In this document: positions 6,007-16,000 of the stretch, in pieces
Layout: every line of letters begins with the position of its first letter
Numbering within the stretch: the first letter of the stretch is position 1
Source: an uncultured bacterium
GTDB lineage: Bacteria; Acidobacteriota; Aminicenantia; UBA2199
Direction of reading: 5' to 3'
NCBI GenBank assembly: GCA_965603365.1
Contig: CBFDCR010000004.1
Location: forward strand, 21,260 to 85,259
DNA length: 64,000 bases
Notes under the pieces: generated by a model
Database searches by the model: none
Told to the model about the DNA's origin: nothing
The model's input: the letters and a program-made list of their open reading frames with translations, nothing else
Translations under genes and position numbers: made by a program

Positions 6007-6279
6007 TATGGGGGTCATTTGGTCGGGGATGGGGATGATTTCTGCGCTTATGGGAATGGTTTTGTCCGTTATGGGGACGGTTTTGCCGCTTATGGGAATG
6101 GTTTTGCCGGGTATGTGGACCGTTTCGGAGGGTATGGGAATGGTTTTTCCCCTTATGGGGATGATTTTTCCGGCTATGGGGATGGTTTCGCCCGTTATGG
6201 GAATGATTTTGCCCGCTATGTGAATGGTTTTGCCGGGTATGGGAATGGTTTTGCCGCTTATGGGAGTGATTTTTCCGCA
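6007..6279. repeat. 21-bp tandem repeat array A (13 units, consensus ~TATGGGAATGGTTTTGCCGCT)
   Basis: TATGGG motif recurs at 6007, 6028, 6049, 6070, 6091, 6112, 6133, 6154, 6175, 6196, 6217, 6238 and 6259 with an exact 21-bp period; lies in the convergent intergenic region between the B3/4 gene and the 6316-7374 gene. Confidence 0.9.
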
Positions 6280-7374: not shown

Positions 7375-7402
7375 ATTGTCCCTCCTCGTTATATTTTTTT
7401 AT

Positions 7403-8953
7403 TCATTTATTTTTTATTTTATTATGCGCTTCGGATAACGCCTCATACCAGATAAGACCTTCGGGGACGGATTTCCGTTCTTTATCAACACCTATAATAT
7501 TTATTCCCTCTTCTAACTCCAATCGCAGTTTATTCCTGTATTCAATCATTAATTCATCGGTATCCAGGCCCTTATGTTCACCAGTATAATGAAAGATAAA
7601 AATTTGTTTGTTCTCATCTTCTATAAGTGATCTAAACATACCGTTAATATGACCATCATCGGTATTAAATCCATACCCAATGACACAAATCACATCAGAT
7701 TTCCTGAATTCATCGTATAATTTAACATATCTTTCTGACATTCTTACGGAAGTCAAAGGTTTGATGCCGCTTTGAGTAAACAAAAAGGGAACCGTTATAT
7801 GATCGCCCTTTGTTAATTTCTCAACCTTTACAATCTTATTTAAATATGGATCATAGAAATCCCTAACAGATCCGTTCAGAAAAAATACATCTCTTTTAGT
7901 AACCTCTTCAATAAAGGTATTGTAATTTGTAGTCCCAATGGTTTTAATATCAAACAGGAATTTATCCTCCAAAACGTCATGATAATAACCTGGTCCCGCT
8001 TTACATCGTTCTATATATTTTTTAGCTATTTCGTAAATATAACGCCTGACAGTATGCAAAAAGATGGCAATTTTACAAAACTTTGCCCAATCAGTCTTGG
8101 GACTGTACAAATATCTCCAGTAGCTATCGATCAAAGATTGATAATCTAATGCCTTTGCATAGAGATCCTCTAAAATCATCTTCCCGAATTGGATGATAAT
8201 GTTTTCATCAGACCCTGTTGGGAAATTAATGAAACTCTCTGACACGATATAATCCAAACCTTCCAAACCCGTACGCCTGTAATCCAGAGAGAAGATACTT
8301 TCAAACTCATCAAAAACATCAATCCCAGGTGGCGTTTTAGCGAAGACTCCATCATTCAATCGGTGAATTAAGGCTTCTCCACAGGAACCGATTAACAATT
8401 CCAATACAGCTTTGACTATTTTCTTGACCTCAACCCTGAATTGTTTACTAATCCCTGAAGTTTCGAGAATATTCAACAATGCAGAAAAATAACTGCTACC
8501 GAAAATTTTATTATAATCACCTAAGCTTGTAGATAAGGCAATTAACTGTGTGTATAATTTTGAACCAAACTTTATATGGGTAATATTTTCAAAGCTTTCC
8601 TTTACTTTGTTCCCTCTCTCACTAAAACTATTCGCATGCCCCTTTACATTTCTATCAAAATCATTTAAATAATTCAAAATAACATCCCGTTTGTTTTCGA
8701 GACTGCCTTTTACTAAAGATTCTAAATGAGATTTCCCGAATGCTGAAACAGGTTTCTTTAAATATCCCAAAGGTAGCCAGTGGGATGCATAAATAGAACC
8801 CTCGGCTACCATTTTTCGTTTTTCATTAAAATCATTTTTATCTCCACTAACATCCATTCTAAATATTTCCAATGCAAATTTTCCACCGGACGGAAGCCCA
8901 TAAGACATCTCCGCCCCTGCGCCGAAAAAAAGGGCCAATGTTGGTCTTTCCAT
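7403..8953 (-). CDS. SIR2-like domain protein (SIR2_2 / 'DSR-like' NADase family), 516 aa
   Basis: N-terminal LALFFGAGAEMSYGLPSGGKFALEIF matches the GAGxS...GLP motif at the start of SIR2_2 domains. Later VICVIGYGFNTDDGHINGMF matches the C-terminal IGYSF.D motif. Low GC (~40%), GAGGAG RBS, 21-bp gap from the upstream membrane-protein gene. Confidence 0.75.
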   Translation of the reverse strand: MERPTLALFFGAGAEMSYGLPSGGKFALEIFRMDVSGDKNDFNEKRKMVAEGSIYASHWLPLGYLKKPVSAFGKSHLESLVKGSLENKRDVILNYLNDFDRNVKGHANSFSERGNKVKESFENITHIKFGSKLYTQLIALSTSLGDYNKIFGSSYFSALLNILETSGISKQFRVEVKKIVKAVLELLIGSCGEALIHRLNDGVFAKTPPGIDVFDEFESIFSLDYRRTGLEGLDYIVSESFINFPTGSDENIIIQFGKMILEDLYAKALDYQSLIDSYWRYLYSPKTDWAKFCKIAIFLHTVRRYIYEIAKKYIERCKAGPGYYHDVLEDKFLFDIKTIGTTNYNTFIEEVTKRDVFFLNGSVRDFYDPYLNKIVKVEKLTKGDHITVPFLFTQSGIKPLTSVRMSERYVKLYDEFRKSDVICVIGYGFNTDDGHINGMFRSLIEDENKQIFIFHYTGEHKGLDTDELMIEYRNKLRLELEEGINIIGVDKERKSVPEGLIWYEALSEAHNKIKNK

Positions 8954-8974
8954 TTTATCCTCCCTCTCCTCTTT

Positions 8975-9700
8975 TTATTTATTATTTGCGTTCTCATTTG
9001 TGTTTTTATTTTTCTCGTTACTTAATTTGTCGGTTCTCCCCTCATCGACCTTATTCTTAAACAACGAGTTAAATATCTCATTTAATTTATCAATGGCCTG
9101 TTTGGAAAACATCCCGGATAAAGCGGCAAATCCCATTACACTGAAAGGCCGTAGTGTTGAGACTTCGGTTTGAATGACGAGAAGACTTCCTTTTATGATC
9201 ATAAAAACAATAAGCGCCAGTACCGAACCGATGGGGAGACGCAGCCAATACCACCAGTACCAACTGGGGTGGAATTTACGATTACCGATAAAATCCGAAA
9301 AAGAAGTAGCTGCATGGATATAGCTGCCCAGGGCACCGGCTATCAACACCAATAGTAACAGACGCAATTCATGGGAAATTTCTAAACCCAACAAAAGCGT
9401 CTTTTTCGACCAATTGTCCTGATCACTTTTCCCTTCTACCGATTGCGTCTCCAGGCTGTCGGTTCTGGCTTCGGCCTGGATATCTGGGGACGCCACTGCC
9501 GGTGGTTTCGACGATGTGGGAGGTTCCACCTTTAAGGGCCAGAATTCAATGATAAAAAGAATCATAATAAAGGGTACGATTATTAAAAAAGCGCCCAGGA
9601 AAAAGCGCTTGCATCCGGTATCCTTTGATTTCAGTGGCGGCTCAGCAGGCTGCTGCTTCTCCAAACCCGAGTTTTTCCCTTCTCTAGTTTCCTCAGTCAT
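8975..9700 (-). CDS. small polytopic membrane protein (3-4 predicted TM helices), first gene of the SIR2 cassette
   Basis: Hydrophobic spans FFLGAFLIIVPFIMILFIIEFW, LRLLLLVLIAGALGSYIHAATSF, WYWLRLPIGSVLALIVFMIIKGSLLV, FSVMGFAALSGMF; charged N-terminus and Asn/Lys-rich C-terminal tail; GAGGAG RBS. Confidence 0.65.
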   Translation of the reverse strand: MTEETREGKNSGLEKQQPAEPPLKSKDTGCKRFFLGAFLIIVPFIMILFIIEFWPLKVEPPTSSKPPAVASPDIQAEARTDSLETQSVEGKSDQDNWSKKTLLLGLEISHELRLLLLVLIAGALGSYIHAATSFSDFIGNRKFHPSWYWWYWLRLPIGSVLALIVFMIIKGSLLVIQTEVSTLRPFSVMGFAALSGMFSKQAIDKLNEIFNSLFKNKVDEGRTDKLSNEKNKNTNENANNK

Positions 9701-9978
9701 ATTTACTCTCCTCTTATATTTTTTTATTCCTTATAAATTTTTTTGCCTTTAATCTCTATCTTTTTGTTAAAGATAAAATAAGTTGGGGAAAAAGTCAATA
9801 GTGGGGTGAGGTTTTTTTATTTTTTTTAGAGTTCCCCTCTCACAGGTTCTGCCATATTTGAGCGTCCGTACTATAAGCGGCAGCAACCTGGCAAAGCTAA
9901 AACACTAATTTAAACTTTAGCTAAGGCACTTAAAGTTTAAGATGCCATAGTAGATGTTAGACCCGTTTATATCGATTA

Positions 9979-10674
9979 TTACTGGATTTCGTAGAATACC
10001 ATCGAGGTATACTGGCCAAAAACCAGGGAAAGAAAGCACTGGTGATTGAGACTCCAGATCAGAGAGATTCCCGGGATTTCATTGGCATAGACCTCTGCTT
10101 TAATATCGTTTAAGACGTCCAGAATTTCCTCTGTGTCCTGGAGCATCTCATGGTAAATCCCTCGAACATCGCCACTCTTCAAGTATCTTCTGACATCCCA
10201 GAATAAGGAAAAGATTAATCCATTATCAATACGAAATTTACCATAATTGAAAGTTTCCAACTCTGCAATCACCTCGGGATTGTAAGGGGTCACTTCGGCA
10301 AGTTGTGTTAAGTCGATATAAGCCAGCCTGGCATTCTCCATATGAACGATAGCCGTATCGATCAGGTTTTGCAATTCGTTAAAATCCGTGCCGTTCAAAT
10401 CACTGATCTCTATTCTGTTGAGAAAATCAATTATAACGGAATGGGATTTTAAAAAATGGCCTGCACCTTCAACCACGTACAGGTTGATGGAAGAACCGGT
10501 ATTATCGGCCTGAATCCCCCCCTGGAAAGCCATGGGCGACCAATTGGCTTTGAGGGAAGCCAAGCCATTCACATGTAACAACAGAACAGCAACAAGCAAC
10601 ACAGAAATTTTTAAGCAAAAGCATTTTTTTATGTCCATTAGATCCTCCATTTTTCTATTTAAATATATAAACAT
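9979..10674 (-). CDS. secreted hypothetical protein, tandem paralog 1
   Basis: Signal peptide (LKISVLLVAVLLLHVNGLA) and ~50% identity to the adjacent 10740-11405 product, with shared blocks FNYGKFR.D.GL.FSLFWDVRRYLK.GDVRG.Y..ML.DTE.ILD and C-terminal QYTSMVFYEI. Confidence 0.6.
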   Translation of the reverse strand: MFIYLNRKMEDLMDIKKCFCLKISVLLVAVLLLHVNGLASLKANWSPMAFQGGIQADNTGSSINLYVVEGAGHFLKSHSVIIDFLNRIEISDLNGTDFNELQNLIDTAIVHMENARLAYIDLTQLAEVTPYNPEVIAELETFNYGKFRIDNGLIFSLFWDVRRYLKSGDVRGIYHEMLQDTEEILDVLNDIKAEVYANEIPGISLIWSLNHQCFLSLVFGQYTSMVFYEIQ

Positions 10675-10739
10675 TGGGTCTTATAATGCGCTTCTAAAAT
10701 ATTTCATTATTTAATATTTCGCAAATAGGGTTCCAGGTT

Positions 10740-11405
10740 TCAGAGATTCTGAACAATCTCGTAGAATACCATAGAGGTATACTGGTTAAAAATGAGGGAG
10801 AGGAAACATCGATGATTCAGATCCCAGATTTGCGATATTTCCGGCATCTGGCAGGCATCCACCGCTGCCTGAAGATTGTACAAAATGTCTAAAATGTCCT
10901 CGGTATCATGGAGCATCTTACGGTATAATCCCCGGACATCGCCGCGCTTCAAGTATCTTCTGACATCCCAGAATAAGGAAAAGTTTAAACCACTATCCCC
11001 ACGGAATTTTCCATAATTGAAAGTAAACAATTCTCTTATTACCTCCTGGTTGTAGGGAGTAATATCGGCTAAGTACGTTAAGTCATCGTAAGCAGCCCTG
11101 GCACCTTCCATATAAAAGATAGCATTACCGATCGACTCCTGGAATTCGCCGTAATCTGGATCATTCTCGTCATACAACTCGATTTTGTGGAGAAAGTAAA
11201 GGATTTCAGAATGGAATTTCAGAAAATACGCTCCCCCCTCGGTAACATAGTAACTAATGGTGTGACCGGGATTCGGTGCCCCGATATCATCAAAAGCGGC
11301 GGGTGACCAATTGGAAACAAGCCGAGCCAGGGCATGCGACTGAAATAACATAAAGACAAAAACAAACAACATAGTCTTAAAAAAGCAACCTCTTTTTATG
11401 TCCAT
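10740..11405 (-). CDS. secreted hypothetical protein, tandem paralog 2
   Basis: Signal peptide MLFVFVFMLFQSHALA; paralogous to 9979-10674. Confidence 0.6.
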   Translation of the reverse strand: MDIKRGCFFKTMLFVFVFMLFQSHALARLVSNWSPAAFDDIGAPNPGHTISYYVTEGGAYFLKFHSEILYFLHKIELYDENDPDYGEFQESIGNAIFYMEGARAAYDDLTYLADITPYNQEVIRELFTFNYGKFRGDSGLNFSLFWDVRRYLKRGDVRGLYRKMLHDTEDILDILYNLQAAVDACQMPEISQIWDLNHRCFLSLIFNQYTSMVFYEIVQNL

Positions 11406-11435
11406 TGGGTCCTCCTATTTTTTAATCCTCTTAAT

Positions 11436-11495
11436 TTATATTATACATAATAAACAAGAATTTTCAAATCCAGATGACAACCCCTTTTTATTCAT
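11436..11495 (-). other. candidate 19-codon small ORF MNKKGLSSGFENSCLLCII with an AGGAG RBS (speculative peptide gene)
   Basis: ATG 8 nt downstream of AGGAG; two Cys in a C-terminal C..C; sits between the fused ABC gene and the secreted paralogs in the rSAM island. Confidence 0.2.
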
Positions 11496-11673
11496 AGCTG
11501 CTACTCCTATTTTTTTTCATGTGTTTCCTCACTAAAGTCACTTCTACCGCTGTGCTGAATTTTATGATCCCTAAACGGTCTAAACTTAAAACTCTTACTT
11601 TATTTAATAGGAGCGAGCATCGTTATTTTCTACGAAATCCAATGTATACATTACGAAATAGAAAAAAAAGGTT

Positions 11674-13707
11674 TCATTCTCCATTGGCGAAGTATTGAAA
11701 ATAAACTTGATTCAGGTTCATTTGTCTCAACTCCGAATCTTTAACATCAAATAGAAGCTGCCCTCCCTTCATGATACCGATTCGGTCGCCGATCTCCGGT
11801 GCCAGCAGCACGTCGTTGCTGAGATACAATATTCCTTTGCCAGATTCCTTCAGTCTACGAATATTCCTGGTGAATTCAATGATAAATTCAACCGGCATAC
11901 CACTGGCAAAATCATCAAAAATATAATATTTACTGTTTTTCATTTTAGCAGCGGCAAACACGGCCTGCCGTTTCTCACTCTCCTGTGCCGCGCCAAAATA
12001 CTTTTTCTTGATGTTGTCGATCCCCAGTAAAATAGAAATCTCATCCGCTTCATTCTTATCGATTCCCGTAAGCCGCCGCATCAGATTCAGAAAATCTCCC
12101 ACTTTAATATTGCCGGGCCATTCAGCGGTTTTACCCACAAAAACAAAGTCACCATTCTGCTGATCATCGGCCATAATCTTGAACTTCTCCTGTATTTGAT
12201 CCCAATTTTTGAACTCCTTCACCGCCCCTGAATAGAGCACATACAATTGATCCCCGACGCCGCCGATTGCCGAAAGCAGTACGTAAGATTCGCCCTTTCT
12301 TACTCTCAAGTTTAGTTTACCGGTGGGAGGCAATTTTTTCATAAAGGTGGAAGAATCGAACCTGACCATTTTGAACAGGAACCTTTTGCAGCACAGGTAG
12401 GACACGATTAAAAGTATAACACAGAGTAATATCGTAAGGGATACCCCTGTCCACGCATAATCCGGCAGCCGACTGCCGGCGTAGAAAATATTCTCATCTC
12501 CCTCTATAAAAGACTCAACGTTTTCTGGATGCTCGGTATAATAACTCTTTTCGATAAAAAACTTGACAAACCTCTTCTTCAGAGCATGTACATAGTGATA
12601 AAAATCAATAAAGTTCTTGTATCCCCGGCTGCTCACCTCGTTGTGCACGGACTGGTAAAAGGTGGCAGGAAAGAAGGAAGCGAGGCGGTGATAAAATCTC
12701 ACATTGTCATTCATCTCCTCGATCATTCCTTTCTCCATCTTATTGATCTCTACAAATTCATTCCGTAAATAACTCTCAATCGCGCCCTTTGCTTCCTCCG
12801 ACATCTTCTCTCCCAATGGGAGGGTACCGTATTTCTTATTGCTTTCTTGCTCAAAACTCATGAGAGTCTTTAATTTTTTCAACTCCAGTTGGTAATTCAA
12901 AGTGATGTTCCCCGCCCGCTTGGAAACCAACTTGCTTATAATCCCGGGCAGCAAAAACACCGAAACAAACCACAATACCATGAGGGTGACCACACCGACG
13001 GCTTTTGATTTCAGGCTGCCGACCGCCGTTCCCAGGATGTAGAAAAAGAGCAGCATCAACAACATGACTGCGGAATATTTCAACAAATAGATGTAGTCGG
13101 GGCCACCCAGAGGTATCCCATTGGCTACCAACAGCACAGAGCCGGCAACTATCAAAAAGAGAAAGAAGAACAACATTATCAGGATTCTGGAAGCCAGTAT
13201 AGAGCAAAAGATCGGTTTGAAACCGGAAAAGCCGGACAAAAATCTCAAATAATCCCGGTAGCGAAATGAGCTGTAGCCAAAATAGAGGGCCATCAAACTC
13301 CCGAACAGCAGGATTATCCCGGAAAAATCTTTAAAGTTATCCTTTTTTTCGGAAAATAAATTCTTGCCTTTAATGGAGTTGTAGATTTTTAAAATTTCGC
13401 CGGAATCCACCTGGGAAGTAATTTCAGCCGCCACACCGGAATTTGTAAAGAATACACTCAAGGGAGAAGGGATGAACAGCAAACGAAACCCATAGCTTCC
13501 GTACTGCCGGTAATGCGTGTATTGTCCCACTTTTACCTTTTCGATTTCCTGAAACTTAACCTTACTATCGGCGATATCTTTGTAGTCTTGAATGCCCTCT
13601 TGCACAAAATAGAGGCACAACAATAAGAGCAACATCAGGGCAACGATCACTTTAGCGGAAAACAGCCGCTTAAACTCTGCCACAAAGAATGCACAAAAAT
13701 CTTTCAT
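11674..13707 (-). CDS. fused ABC-2-type permease / degenerate ABC ATPase-like protein (677 aa)
   Basis: N-terminal half has ~6 hydrophobic helices with the large first extracytoplasmic loop typical of ABC-2 permeases. The C-terminal ~220 aa has an ABC-ATPase-like tail (ILYLSNDVLLAPEIGDRIGIMKGGQL, like the D-loop/H-loop region) but no canonical Walker A GxxGxGKS/T (LLSAIGGVGDQ instead). Confidence 0.55.
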   Translation of the reverse strand: MKDFCAFFVAEFKRLFSAKVIVALMLLLLLCLYFVQEGIQDYKDIADSKVKFQEIEKVKVGQYTHYRQYGSYGFRLLFIPSPLSVFFTNSGVAAEITSQVDSGEILKIYNSIKGKNLFSEKKDNFKDFSGIILLFGSLMALYFGYSSFRYRDYLRFLSGFSGFKPIFCSILASRILIMLFFFLFLIVAGSVLLVANGIPLGGPDYIYLLKYSAVMLLMLLFFYILGTAVGSLKSKAVGVVTLMVLWFVSVFLLPGIISKLVSKRAGNITLNYQLELKKLKTLMSFEQESNKKYGTLPLGEKMSEEAKGAIESYLRNEFVEINKMEKGMIEEMNDNVRFYHRLASFFPATFYQSVHNEVSSRGYKNFIDFYHYVHALKKRFVKFFIEKSYYTEHPENVESFIEGDENIFYAGSRLPDYAWTGVSLTILLCVILLIVSYLCCKRFLFKMVRFDSSTFMKKLPPTGKLNLRVRKGESYVLLSAIGGVGDQLYVLYSGAVKEFKNWDQIQEKFKIMADDQQNGDFVFVGKTAEWPGNIKVGDFLNLMRRLTGIDKNEADEISILLGIDNIKKKYFGAAQESEKRQAVFAAAKMKNSKYYIFDDFASGMPVEFIIEFTRNIRRLKESGKGILYLSNDVLLAPEIGDRIGIMKGGQLLFDVKDSELRQMNLNQVYFQYFANGE

Positions 13708-13781
13708 TGTCTTCTTTCCCCCCCAGTTCTGCCAGATTCCGCAAACAACATACAGATCTTCTTCCTGCTATCTATTTCCAT
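13704..13781 (-). other. candidate 25-codon small ORF (MEIDSRKKICMLFAESGRTGGERRQ) overlapping the transporter start by ATGA (speculative)
   Basis: TGA stop overlaps the ATG of the 11674-13707 gene (CAATGAAAG); weak SD; no convincing precursor-peptide features. Confidence 0.12.
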
Positions 13782-13893
13782 ATTCACTCATATATTTTAC
13801 AAACATTAGAGCCACCGGTCAATAAAAAACTAACTTTTTGCTGTATCCTGGCTTTCTGGCCATAAAAAGTTCATTTGCCGACATTTTACACAT

Positions 13894-15204
13894 TTATGCA
13901 GAGCTAACTGCCCTCAGATTAGACTTCGGTGCCAGTACAGACATAGACAGAGGAGCCCTATGCCTCTCTTCATAGGGATTGTAATGGCACCATGGTTTTC
14001 TACAAAAATGATTTCCGTTTGAGCCATAACAAACCGGCTGGCAAGCATGGCATACATACCGATACTCGCAATCTTTACAAACCTCAATCTGATCCAGGGA
14101 GAGCCTCCAGAACCTTTGAAGCTTTTTCCCCCAGATAATATCTTTTAAAGAGTTTTCCCGAACGTTGCCGCAGGACTCATTTCTTTGCATAATGCAGGGG
14201 AATACATCGCCAGTGCTGGTTATGTCAACCTTTCCCCGCCAGCATGCATTCCCTCTAAACCTCCAGAGAAAAGTACCTTTATTGACCGGGAAAAATACGG
14301 CATCTTTCTCCTTCTGTTCGGAAATAAATTTATCGGGAACCAGTTCACTATCGATGGAACCCCCGGAGGGTCGAAGGATTCCATACTGGGGATCCTCCAT
14401 ACCCAATTCCTTCAGAAAAGCCATTGTTTCATCAACAACATCCTGGTTATGCTTCATCACCAATATACAGTAACGAACATTAACTCCTTTTTTTTCTAAC
14501 TTTCGACAATTCGCCAGCAGCCTGGTATGAGATCCCTTCACCCTGGTTATCTGATCATGAATTTCAGGTCGTTTTGAATAGATGGAAGTGGACACACTGA
14601 TTCCAAATTCTACGATTTGATCCACCCATTCATCCTTGAGAATATTAAGATTCGAAAAGAGTTGAATATCCTTATAATCGCATTTCCTTGCCCTCTCGGC
14701 AATCGAGAACAGATCTTCACCATACAATAGAGGCTCACCACCGATGAATTGCAACGCCTGGCAACCCAGTCCCGCCGCCTCGTATATAACCCTCATCCAC
14801 TCTCCCTTTTTAAGTCGTCTTCCTGCCGTCCCAGGAGGATTATTCTGAGAATAGCAATGCCGACATCTCTGGTTGCAGTCTTCCCGGAGCTCCAACCAGA
14901 TAAAATCAAGTTTATCATGAGATGAGGACAGGGGACGTTTTTCAACTTCTTTAGGGCCAGAATAAAAGTTTCCCAGGTCCTCTGAATCCAACCTATTTAG
15001 ATAAGCCAGGGCATCGGTAAAACCGATATCAGGAATCCGGGACGAAACCCTGGAAATCTTCTCTCCCTTTTCGCAGGCTTCGATCAACTTCACCGCAATG
15101 GGGTCGATAGAATGAACCGATCCATTCATTAGATTATACACTGCACCACCCCTGGCTCCCTTGACCAGGTAGCAATCATCTTTCAAGAAAAAATACACAC
15201 CCAC
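13894..15204 (-). CDS. radical SAM / SPASM-domain peptide-modifying enzyme with an N-terminal RRE(PqqD)-like segment
   Basis: CNQRCRHC (Cx3Cx2C) at ~residue 110. C-terminal Cys-rich auxiliary-cluster region (CWRGK...FPCIMQRNESCGN...CKDCEYRYVCHAC...). N-terminal YLVKGARGGAVYNLMNGSVHSIDPIAVKLIEACEKGEKI resembles RiPP recognition elements. Confidence 0.8.
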   Translation of the reverse strand: MGVYFFLKDDCYLVKGARGGAVYNLMNGSVHSIDPIAVKLIEACEKGEKISRVSSRIPDIGFTDALAYLNRLDSEDLGNFYSGPKEVEKRPLSSSHDKLDFIWLELREDCNQRCRHCYSQNNPPGTAGRRLKKGEWMRVIYEAAGLGCQALQFIGGEPLLYGEDLFSIAERARKCDYKDIQLFSNLNILKDEWVDQIVEFGISVSTSIYSKRPEIHDQITRVKGSHTRLLANCRKLEKKGVNVRYCILVMKHNQDVVDETMAFLKELGMEDPQYGILRPSGGSIDSELVPDKFISEQKEKDAVFFPVNKGTFLWRFRGNACWRGKVDITSTGDVFPCIMQRNESCGNVRENSLKDIIWGKKLQRFWRLSLDQIEVCKDCEYRYVCHACQPVCYGSNGNHFCRKPWCHYNPYEERHRAPLSMSVLAPKSNLRAVSSA

Positions 15205-15243
15205 ATCCTCCTACAGGACGAAAGGGGCTCTTTCACTTTTACG

Positions 15244-15687
15244 TTAACCCAATTGCCGGGCCCCTACCCTTAAATTCATCTGCGCCCCATCTATATGGTC
15301 AAAATGATTTATCCCTACACCAAGCTCTTCTTGAAAAGCCAGAGATTTATGAAAAAAACCGTTTAGCTGAACCGATACCGACCTTAGTTCCCCTGTCAAA
15401 TGTTTGAACTCGTTCTCATTTATATATCCGAGGTATAAAGCACAATTCAAACTGTCCTTGACTTTCTCACATAGTCTGATGGCCTTCTTTAAAAAAATGT
15501 ACTTCCTGGAACTATTTCTCTTCTCAAAAGCTTCGCTAATTTCGATATTGAGGGATATGGCTGCCTTTCGAATATGCCGCCGCAGATGATTACCTTTTAA
15601 AAATCTCTCTTTGGTGGTTATGTTATATATTTTTTTGGCGATATTCAACCCCTCGGCCCACAATATAAGATGCTTTTGTCTCCCCAT
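15244..15687 (-). CDS. four-helix-bundle protein (23S rRNA intervening-sequence protein family, TIGR02436-like)
   Basis: LWAEGLNIAKKIYNITTK...HLRRHIRKAAISLNIEISEAF.KRNSSRKYIFLKKAIRLCEKVKDSL..ALYLGYINENEFKHL matches the family's characteristic helix pattern; the C-terminal ~30 aa extension may be read-through. Confidence 0.75.
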   Translation of the reverse strand: MGRQKHLILWAEGLNIAKKIYNITTKERFLKGNHLRRHIRKAAISLNIEISEAFEKRNSSRKYIFLKKAIRLCEKVKDSLNCALYLGYINENEFKHLTGELRSVSVQLNGFFHKSLAFQEELGVGINHFDHIDGAQMNLRVGARQLG

Positions 15688-16000
15688 TTGATTTATTCTT
15701 GTTCTCTAACACGCTTAAGATAAGCTTCCGCCACTGGTCCTCCTTTTTCTGCATGGTCACTATTAACCACAGCAAGTTTCCGTTTTTTGTGTAAATTATT
15801 CTTTGAATTTATAATACAGCATTTTCCATGCCAAACGTATAATAACTCTGAAACCGTCTATTAACAAGCATTTTTGGGAATTTGAATTGTTCATTTCAAT
15901 TTAATTTTCAATATTTACGTAAATTTTTTTTACACTCCAACTTAGAAAAAGGACGGGAAACTATCTCATAATAAGGAACTCCAGAAAAAACACACCGAAG

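Follow-up and report, generated by a model that had tools for sequence, protein, structure and literature searches.

A low-GC, single-strand gene stretch of an uncultured Aminicenantia bacterium as a probable mosaic of three parts with different pasts

Is a gene stretch that runs on one strand through a trough of low GC content a single acquired island, a peptide-maturation cluster, or something put together piece by piece? The question is raised by positions 7403-15687 of a 64-kb stretch of DNA from an uncultured bacterium of the Aminicenantia (the window, which here always means the full 64 kb). As a preliminary description of this DNA had said, all genes in that interval lie on the minus strand, which is filled by seven open reading frames (ORFs). 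They encode a SIR2-like protein, a multi-transmembrane (TM) protein, two tandem secreted paralogs (P2 and P1), a 677-aa ABC-2-type permease, a radical S-adenosylmethionine enzyme (rSAM) and a cytoplasmic four-helix-bundle (4HB) protein. That description had left three readings side by side: a locus for a ribosomally made peptide with post-translational modifications (RiPP), an rSAM that modifies the secreted paralogs, or one composite system acquired as a whole. We favour a different answer, with a probability of about 0.8, namely that three units, each with a history of its own, make up the region as a mosaic, and that it is neither one island nor a RiPP cluster. The evidence for it is the presence and absence of genes among relatives, the junctions, the synteny, the domain content, the absence of RiPP partners and the adjacency of one gene pair. 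The first unit would be a vertically inherited, fast-evolving and AT-shifted block between TatA/LepA and GlmS, which holds the 4HB gene, the 677-aa permease gene and the two paralogs. The second would be a 1.4-kb rSAM insertion that landed between the 4HB gene and the promoter of the permease gene, and the third a 2.3-kb, very AT-rich SIR2-like plus TM gene pair, presumably inserted at a short repeat before the DUF6765 gene.

Relatives were reached by a search with P1, and their contigs (labelled L001 and so on) were all compared against window coordinates. L001 shares 91-95% nucleotide identity with the window over 19 kb, and L002 is likewise 91-95% identical. The flanks of L001 are the same as those of the window (LepA, methyltransferase and TatA on one side, B3_4 and GlmS on the other), and between them it has only 4HB, 677, P1, P2 and DUF6765. 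The alignment of L001 and L002 to the window breaks cleanly at two places, at about 13850/15238 and at about 7413/9707, which are the edges of the rSAM and the SIR2/TM segments. A third close haplotype, L011, has an rSAM protein 100% identical to that of the window and no SIR2/TM pair, so three haplotypes were found, with both segments (window), with rSAM only (L011) and with neither (L001 and L002). Two more distant loci, L016 (a GTDB metagenome-assembled genome labelled Aminicenantes) and L017 (also a GTDB metagenome-assembled genome), are 84-85% identical to the window in GlmS and 86% in LepA at the amino acid level. At the same chromosomal site they carry a 141-aa 4HB protein, a 677- or 679-aa protein and two paralogs, with a gap of only 33-45 nt between the 4HB and 677 genes and without rSAM, SIR2, TM or DUF6765. 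By parsimony the block of 4HB, 677 and two paralogs is thus ancestral at the LepA/GlmS site, and the rSAM and SIR2/TM segments, which have different patterns of presence and absence, would be two later, independent gains.

The opposite order of events, in which rSAM and SIR2/TM were ancestral at the site and were deleted in L001 and L002 (and SIR2/TM also in L011), has little probability. The direct repeat at the SIR2/TM segment could mediate a deletion as well as an insertion, but both outgroups lack both segments, at least three independent losses would be needed, the GC content at third codon positions (GC3) of the SIR2 gene is far from that of the rest of the locus, and the nearest rSAM homologs apart from the L011 copy are only about 50% identical and stand in other contexts. 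All genes shared by the window and L001 are under purifying selection (dN/dS 0.06-0.32), and the block diverges faster than its housekeeping neighbours: against about 85% identity of the latter to L016 and L017, the 677-aa protein shows 55%, the paralogs about 43% and the 4HB protein 44%.

The base composition fits this history. GC content is 0.33-0.45 over 7.5-16 kb in 500-nt windows, and no other low-GC run of the window is as long (19 windows of 1 kb in a row stay under 0.46), so the low GC noted in the preliminary description is real. However, it is uneven inside the stretch, and only the left flank is GC-rich (DUF6765 0.58, B3_4 0.56, GlmS 0.54). On the right, low GC carries on to about 17 kb, through two core genes of the plus strand, TatA (0.40) and the methyltransferase (0.46), which means that the dip is not coextensive with the single-strand block. 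GC3 was 0.33 for SIR2, 0.46 for rSAM, 0.44-0.55 for the remaining block genes and 0.68-0.75 for housekeeping genes. In L016 and L017 the block is AT-shifted against its neighbours too (about 0.39 vs 0.46). Five further, shorter low-GC patches were seen in the window, at about 32-33, 36.5-37.5, 50-52, 54-56.5 and 59.5-61 kb, with a 1-kb GC content of 0.37-0.45 against a window mean of 0.50. Because of such patches, low GC by itself is no marker of foreign DNA here.

The common strand and the contiguous GC trough suggest horizontal acquisition of all 8.3 kb as one composite accessory system, but this reading is already contradicted and has next to no probability. The three haplotypes split its parts, the core block is syntenic and AT-shifted in relatives of about 85% housekeeping identity, the trough runs beyond the block, and GC3 differs between the parts. 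There is no tRNA gene in the 64 kb, Rfam and repeat searches returned no Rfam elements or IS-like ends around the stretch, a Pfam scan of the proteins found no integrase or transposase domain, and no terminal repeats enclose the whole 7400-15700 unit; the sole repeat that flanks an insertion is a 19-25 nt direct repeat at SIR2/TM. As a genomic island, 7400-15700 was therefore rejected on composition and mobility as well as on the relatives, which miss only rSAM and/or SIR2/TM. What survives of the proposed horizontal acquisition concerns these two segments, which are recent accessory DNA missing in 91-95% identical relatives. The lesson is that old, fast-evolving genes next to two small recent insertions can mimic an island through a shared strand and a GC dip.

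We then consider whether the rSAM segment makes the region a RiPP locus. The insertion holds a single ORF (13894-15204, 436 aa) with a GTG start and its own AGGAGG ribosome-binding site (RBS), and it ends 44 nt past the rSAM stop codon. The protein matched Radical_SAM (PF04055, 61 bits, 1.8e-16) and SPASM (PF13186, 38.8 bits against a cutoff of 21.5, 1.2e-9). In the alignment of homologs, the cysteines of the CX3CX2C motif CNQRCRHC (C110, C114 and C117) occupy invariant columns, and seven SPASM cysteines (C321, C337, C376, C379, C385, C388 and C406) are invariant as well. The N-terminal 95 aa or so are conserved among homologs and resemble a RiPP recognition element (RRE); PF05402 (PqqD) did not match the window protein, but it matched several homologs. 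The alignment with CteB (5wgg) is full-length, starting at residue 22 (residues 22-385) and covering the RRE region, and among solved structures SkfB scored best, together with an anaerobic sulfatase-maturating enzyme over the core residues 108-209 only. No NCBIfam subfamily reached its cutoff (AhbD 92.4/500, StsB 91.9/625, TIGR04193 75.3/175), StsB being the top match among peptide maturases. Assignment to the anaerobic sulfatase-maturating enzymes was rejected, with 49.4 bits for TIGR03942 against a cutoff of 349, no sulfatase in the locus and a PDB match confined to the core, which leaves standing the earlier view of a peptide-maturase type. Judged by sequence, the gene is intact and its product a predicted member of an RRE-bearing peptide-maturase clade. 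It shares with CteB, SkfB and StsB the CX3CX2C motif and the seven-Cys SPASM, its N-terminus may be an RRE-like domain as in them, and its homologs, like those enzymes, adjoin Cys-rich precursors; unlike them, it falls below every NCBIfam cutoff and has no precursor, protease or exporter in the window. Pfam and NCBIfam agree with the domain calls of the preliminary description for the rSAM as well as for the ABC-2 permease with a dead ATPase, the two signal-peptide paralogs and the 4HB protein.

The neighbourhoods of rSAM homologs show what a cognate cluster looks like. In four of five independent contexts (L004-6, L007-9, L010 and L021, the fifth being L020), one or two short ORFs of 37-70 aa lie directly downstream of the rSAM homolog; they share a leader ML(E/D)LxKV(S/T), and Cys, aromatic residues and Pro abound in their cores, with HIC-x-PC... 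or C(N/D)P repeats. A TPR protein of 330-340 aa that bears an HExxH motif (a weak Peptidase_MA_2 match) and a classical ABC_membrane/ABC_tran exporter are usually encoded there as well. None of these partners was found in the window. The best match of the precursor hidden Markov model (HMM) to the 64 kb had an E-value of about 1 and lay out of frame inside the rSAM gene, while all controls were recovered at 1e-21 to 1e-24 (1e-15 to 1e-24 for precursor and leader HMMs together). Precursor motif and tblastn searches of the 64 kb gave nothing, and neither the TPR/HExxH partner nor the exporter had a tblastn match in the window at E<=0.01. The rSAM is thus an orphan here. In the L020 context (L020:1-6278), no precursor could be recognised for the rSAM homolog (48% identity), which stands near a second rSAM gene; a SIR2_2 plus FGE-sulfatase fusion protein is also encoded there, and this is possibly another orphan context. 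A literature search on this rSAM clade or on an Aminicenantes RiPP found nothing specific.

A RiPP locus in place, with a short internal precursor matured by the rSAM and exported by the 677-aa protein, has in its favour the intact rSAM with RRE-like N-terminus and SPASM, intergenic short ORFs with one or two Cys, and the ABC-like protein next to the rSAM. The preliminary description had offered two such ORFs, at 11436-11495 and 13704-13781, and had correctly seen no precursor-like ORF of at least 60 aa, as the ORF listing confirmed. Both candidates were rejected. Each is also found in L001, which has no rSAM, and neither resembles the cognate leader (with the HMM, E was about 1, whereas controls reached 1e-21). 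The 11436-11495 peptide, MNKKGLSSGFENSCLLCII, has a Cys-to-Tyr change in L001, is absent from L003, L016 and L017, and overlaps the region's best promoter-like site. The 13704-13781 ORF, MEIDSRKKICMLFAESGRTGGERRQ, could be a regulatory upstream ORF, or its conservation could merely reflect the RBS. Its positional counterpart in L003 (67% nucleotide identity) reads MRTDNRNEGCMPVIGPFGTRGKK, at about 300-375. The 677 gene also persists without rSAM, in L001, L016 and L017, and its ATPase domain is dead, whereas cognate clusters export through ABC_membrane plus ABC_tran proteins. The in-place RiPP reading, largely refuted by now, can be given only a very small probability. A false lead is thereby removed, as there is no cryptic RiPP cluster here and product mining would fail.

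The orphan rSAM may be either inert or active in trans, with its precursor encoded at another place in the genome. The second alternative, with precursor(s), protease and exporter all encoded outside the 64 kb, is unlikely, although it deserves more weight than the other rivals. The enzyme is intact, has kept all catalytic and auxiliary-cluster cysteines and is 100% the same in two strains, it has its own RBS, and its position suits riding on the 4HB transcript; split RiPP clusters are known. But a protein that the window and L011 share at 100% identity carries no selection signal, the precursor lies directly downstream in four of the five homolog contexts, the insertion stops shortly after the rSAM stop codon, and with nearest relatives only about 50% identical nothing points to a resident cluster of this type in the lineage. 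Under the mosaic reading, the rSAM would have arrived without precursor, TPR/HExxH partner or exporter, and it probably rides on the transcript of the 4HB gene. As a by-product, the homolog contexts outline an apparently uncurated rSAM RiPP clade with the ML(E/D)LxKV(S/T) leader, the TPR/HExxH partner and the ABC exporter, for which no NCBIfam model attains its cutoff, and this clade, together with the gene pair described below, makes up the modest remaining interest of the locus.

Most constant in the region is the combination of secreted protein and 677-aa permease. In all 11 loci of the secreted family with enough contig (window, L001-3, L011 and L013-18), a gene of the 677 family lies next to it; to this sample a metagenome scan, by tighter alignment, and a genome scan had given two loci each. 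In distant loci (about 40% identity) the gene order is reversed, in L014 and L018 the pseudo-ATPase domain is a separate 230-aa gene (split 437+230 aa), and the number of secreted partners varies from 1 to 3. The rSAM is lacking in 9 of the 11 loci, and neither a paralog nor a 677 gene occurs in any of the five rSAM-homolog contexts, so rSAM and pair do not generally keep company and the proposal that the rSAM modifies P1 and P2 as protein substrates loses its basis. What had spoken for it was proximity in the window and L011, and a highly conserved C-terminal segment QYTSMVFYEI with one Cys conserved in the close set. But P1 and P2 show no systematic difference at conserved positions between haplotypes with and without rSAM, a separate promoter-like site stands downstream of the rSAM, and the paralogs have Sec signal peptides and not the leader of the RRE clade. 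This alternative is very improbable.

The secreted proteins belong to a family without a Pfam model. P1 and P2 are 58% identical, not about 50% as first estimated, and their paralogy gives the sole long repeat (D2, 76%); P2 more likely starts at 10638 and has 219 aa instead of 231, as its orthologues P0004 and P0007 begin with MDIKK. A word-indexed search had suggested a very rare family (8 clusters), which was overturned by an exhaustive HMM search with 808 clusters at 50% identity. A fold search with the paralog model (pLDDT first 74.6, then 93.6) returned generic four-helix bundles only (de novo designs, b562, Borrelia FbpC and PsbQ), with no functional lead; a profile search of the family against PDB sequences gave nothing significant, and hhalign found no relation between the family and the cytoplasmic 4HB protein. 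P1 and its L001 orthologue (L001:10001-10666) are 74% identical with dS 0.48, dN 0.14 and dN/dS 0.29, while neighbouring genes have a dS of about 0.2-0.25. The low ratio and doubled dS argue against diversifying or positive selection, and P1 allele replacement or recombination seems the more likely cause.

The 677-aa protein has 5-6 hydrophobic segments, about 6 TM by hydropathy and positive-inside topology, and two predicted extracytoplasmic domains of about 90 and 164 aa (residues ~36-125 and ~258-421). PF12679 (ABC2_membrane_2) matched 19 of 29 family members (best E 1e-13), the window protein reaching 18.9 bits, under the cutoff of 27.2. The cytoplasmic C-terminal domain (residues ~447-677) aligns over a whole ABC nucleotide-binding domain (NBD), that of ArtP, ABCA3 and BceA, though PF00005 matched none of the 29 members. 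The loss of Walker A noted earlier is real and family-wide: the window protein reads SAIGGVGD, the glycine-rich loop is kept in 0/29 members and the Lys in 14/29. LSGGQ, likewise lost throughout the family, is replaced by AAQESE in the window protein, the catalytic Glu is Asp in 26/29 members, and the H-loop position has N, T, S or C, never His (0/29). The NBD is thus predicted from its motifs to be catalytically dead, and no separate ATPase gene was seen beside any locus. NosDFY, GldAFG and LanFEG are the nearest known systems, sharing the PF12679 permease family (NosY/GldF type) and the secreted partner encoded alongside, and the NBD-like domain is closest to NBDs of the DrrA, LanF, BceA and ABCA type. 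Unlike those systems, the 677-aa protein is a fusion in the order transmembrane domain to NBD, has lost the ATPase motifs and has no ATPase gene nearby, and its partner is a four-helix bundle without similarity to NosD or GldG.

Being adjacent in all 11 loci, the secreted protein of about 220 aa and the permease/pseudo-NBD would form the conserved functional core. One or more secreted proteins may dock on the two extracytoplasmic domains, giving a complex in the envelope which would not be driven by its own ATP hydrolysis and so could act as scaffold, receptor or gate, not as a pump, except with the help of another, recruited ATPase. The pair might even be, though this is less likely than not, an unrecognised, fairly widespread two-component envelope module, an ABC scaffold repurposed after permanent loss of ATP hydrolysis. 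It could, for instance, receive or anchor an extracytoplasmic protein that evolves fast, or serve in immunity or sensing. The secreted partner varies in copy number and exchanges alleles, which hints at biotic conflict; the variable copy number, the fast divergence and the P1 allele with doubled dS are compatible with a surface or conflict role and are no proof of it. In any case a conserved, unstudied pair is now defined, a secreted four-helix bundle and an ABC-2 permease whose ATPase is dead throughout the family, and on it one could cleanly ask what becomes of ABC scaffolds after ATP hydrolysis stops.

Several points weigh against our reading as a whole. The choice between gain and loss rests on parsimony with only two outgroup loci. 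The 11 loci represent few lineages that are probably related (Aminicenantes-like), in which the 677 family is mainly seen, and they do not establish generality over the 808 clusters. L012 has a 696-aa member of the 677 family without an adjoining paralog. The contact between secreted protein and permease is putative, and so is the lack of an external ATPase partner. Promoter-like sites are consensus matches and their total count is not above that of shuffles (28 vs 21.4 +/- 3.5). Finally, only 64 kb of the genome are visible, so a precursor encoded in trans may lie elsewhere. The L012 locus itself (L012:7001-13275, 57% identity, same metagenome as L001) has an RHH protein before and a 1384-aa protein without Pfam match after the 677-family gene. 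Coordinates of the features are collected in Table 1.

Table 1 Features of the stretch and loci used for comparison (window coordinates unless a contig is named)
Feature	Position	Strand	Remarks
DUF6765 protein, 352 aa	6316..7374	-	PF20551 3e-87; GC 0.58
Direct repeat, downstream copy	7382..7407	.	RBS of DUF6765
SIR2/TM two-gene insertion	7413..9707	-	lowest GC of the region; missing in L001, L002, L011, L016, L017
SIR2-like protein, 516 aa	7403-8953	-	GC3 0.33
TM protein, 241 aa	8975-9700	-	multi-TM, no family
Direct repeat, upstream copy (AATAAAAAAATATAA-GAGGAG, RBS region)	9708..9732	.	family D5, spacing 2325
P2, tandem paralog of P1, likely 219 aa	9979..10638	-	ORF could extend to 10674
P1, 221 aa, signal peptide and up-down four-helix bundle with small helical insert	10740..11405	-	uncharacterised family
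Promoter-like TTGAAA-N16-TATAAT upstream of P1	11440..11467	-	11/12 match; best promoter-like site of region
677-aa ABC-2-type permease with degenerate NBD	11674..13707	-	PF12679, NBD alignment, hydropathy
25-codon ORF MEIDSRKKICMLFAESGRTGGERRQ in 677 leader	13704..13781	-	stop overlaps 677 ATG; rejected precursor candidate
Promoter-like TTGACC-N17-TAAAAT before 677 gene	13794..13822	-	10/12 consensus; just downstream of rSAM insertion
rSAM/SPASM single-gene insertion	13850..15238	-	missing in L001/L002 (clean junctions) and L016/L017; in L011
147-aa four-helix-bundle protein (23S rRNA IVS family)	15244..15687	-	first gene of ancestral block in this lineage
rSAM RiPP clade loci	L004:6001-10640; L007:5117-9600; L010:4582-7534; L021:3158-6717		

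The promoter-like element before the 677 gene is kept in L001 and L011. At the other end of the rSAM insertion, the 4HB protein scored above the cutoffs of PF05635 (53.1 bits, cutoff 33.8) and TIGR02436 (44.1 bits, cutoff 24), like the proteins encoded by 23S rRNA intervening sequences (IVS) and the Avd-like bundles of diversity-generating retroelements; unlike the former, its gene does not lie inside an rRNA IVS. In L001, L011, L016 and L017 an orthologue immediately precedes the 677-family gene on its upstream side; L013, L014 and L018 have none. A diversity-generating retroelement, for which an Avd-like bundle could be a cue, was rejected, as no reverse transcriptase domain was found among the locus proteins and no pair of template and variable repeats.

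The SIR2/TM segment is bracketed by the 19-25 nt direct repeat, which is single-copy in L001. Its SIR2-like protein matched SIR2_2 at 20.5 bits (cutoff 24.5, E 5.5e-4) and SIR2_antiphage at 17.6/500, and the PADLOC SIR2 match was weak (E about 1e-3). A search of PDB sequences with this protein returned no SIR2 structure, and PADLOC matched no known system architecture for the pair. The resemblance to the SIR2 anti-phage systems (Thoeris ThsA, DSR1/2 and SIR2-HerA) consists of weak domain matches in a strain-variable, AT-rich two-gene cassette; the scores are, unlike theirs, far under the cutoffs, and the partner is a small multi-TM protein of no family. Residues 11-13 of the SIR2-like protein form a GAG motif, while its SIR2_2 match spans residues 338-461 only, a position that implies an insertion of about 230 aa, and the expected position of the catalytic His appears to read LNGS.

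The DUF6765 gene, which lies outside the conserved pair, is found in L001 and L002, split in L011 and absent in L016 and L017. In L011 (L011:11093-15955) it is broken into 99 and 212 aa, likely a pseudogene, and is followed by different cargo, namely two small proteins and one of 820 aa with GAF plus HATPase_c, which PADLOC matched to PDC-M43B (E 4e-16), so this spot behaves like a variable hotspot. Between B3_4 and DUF6765 (6029-6278) there is a 21-nt tandem repeat of about 12 copies (74% matches), which makes long spurious repeat-ORFs on both strands, and the region is shorter in L001.

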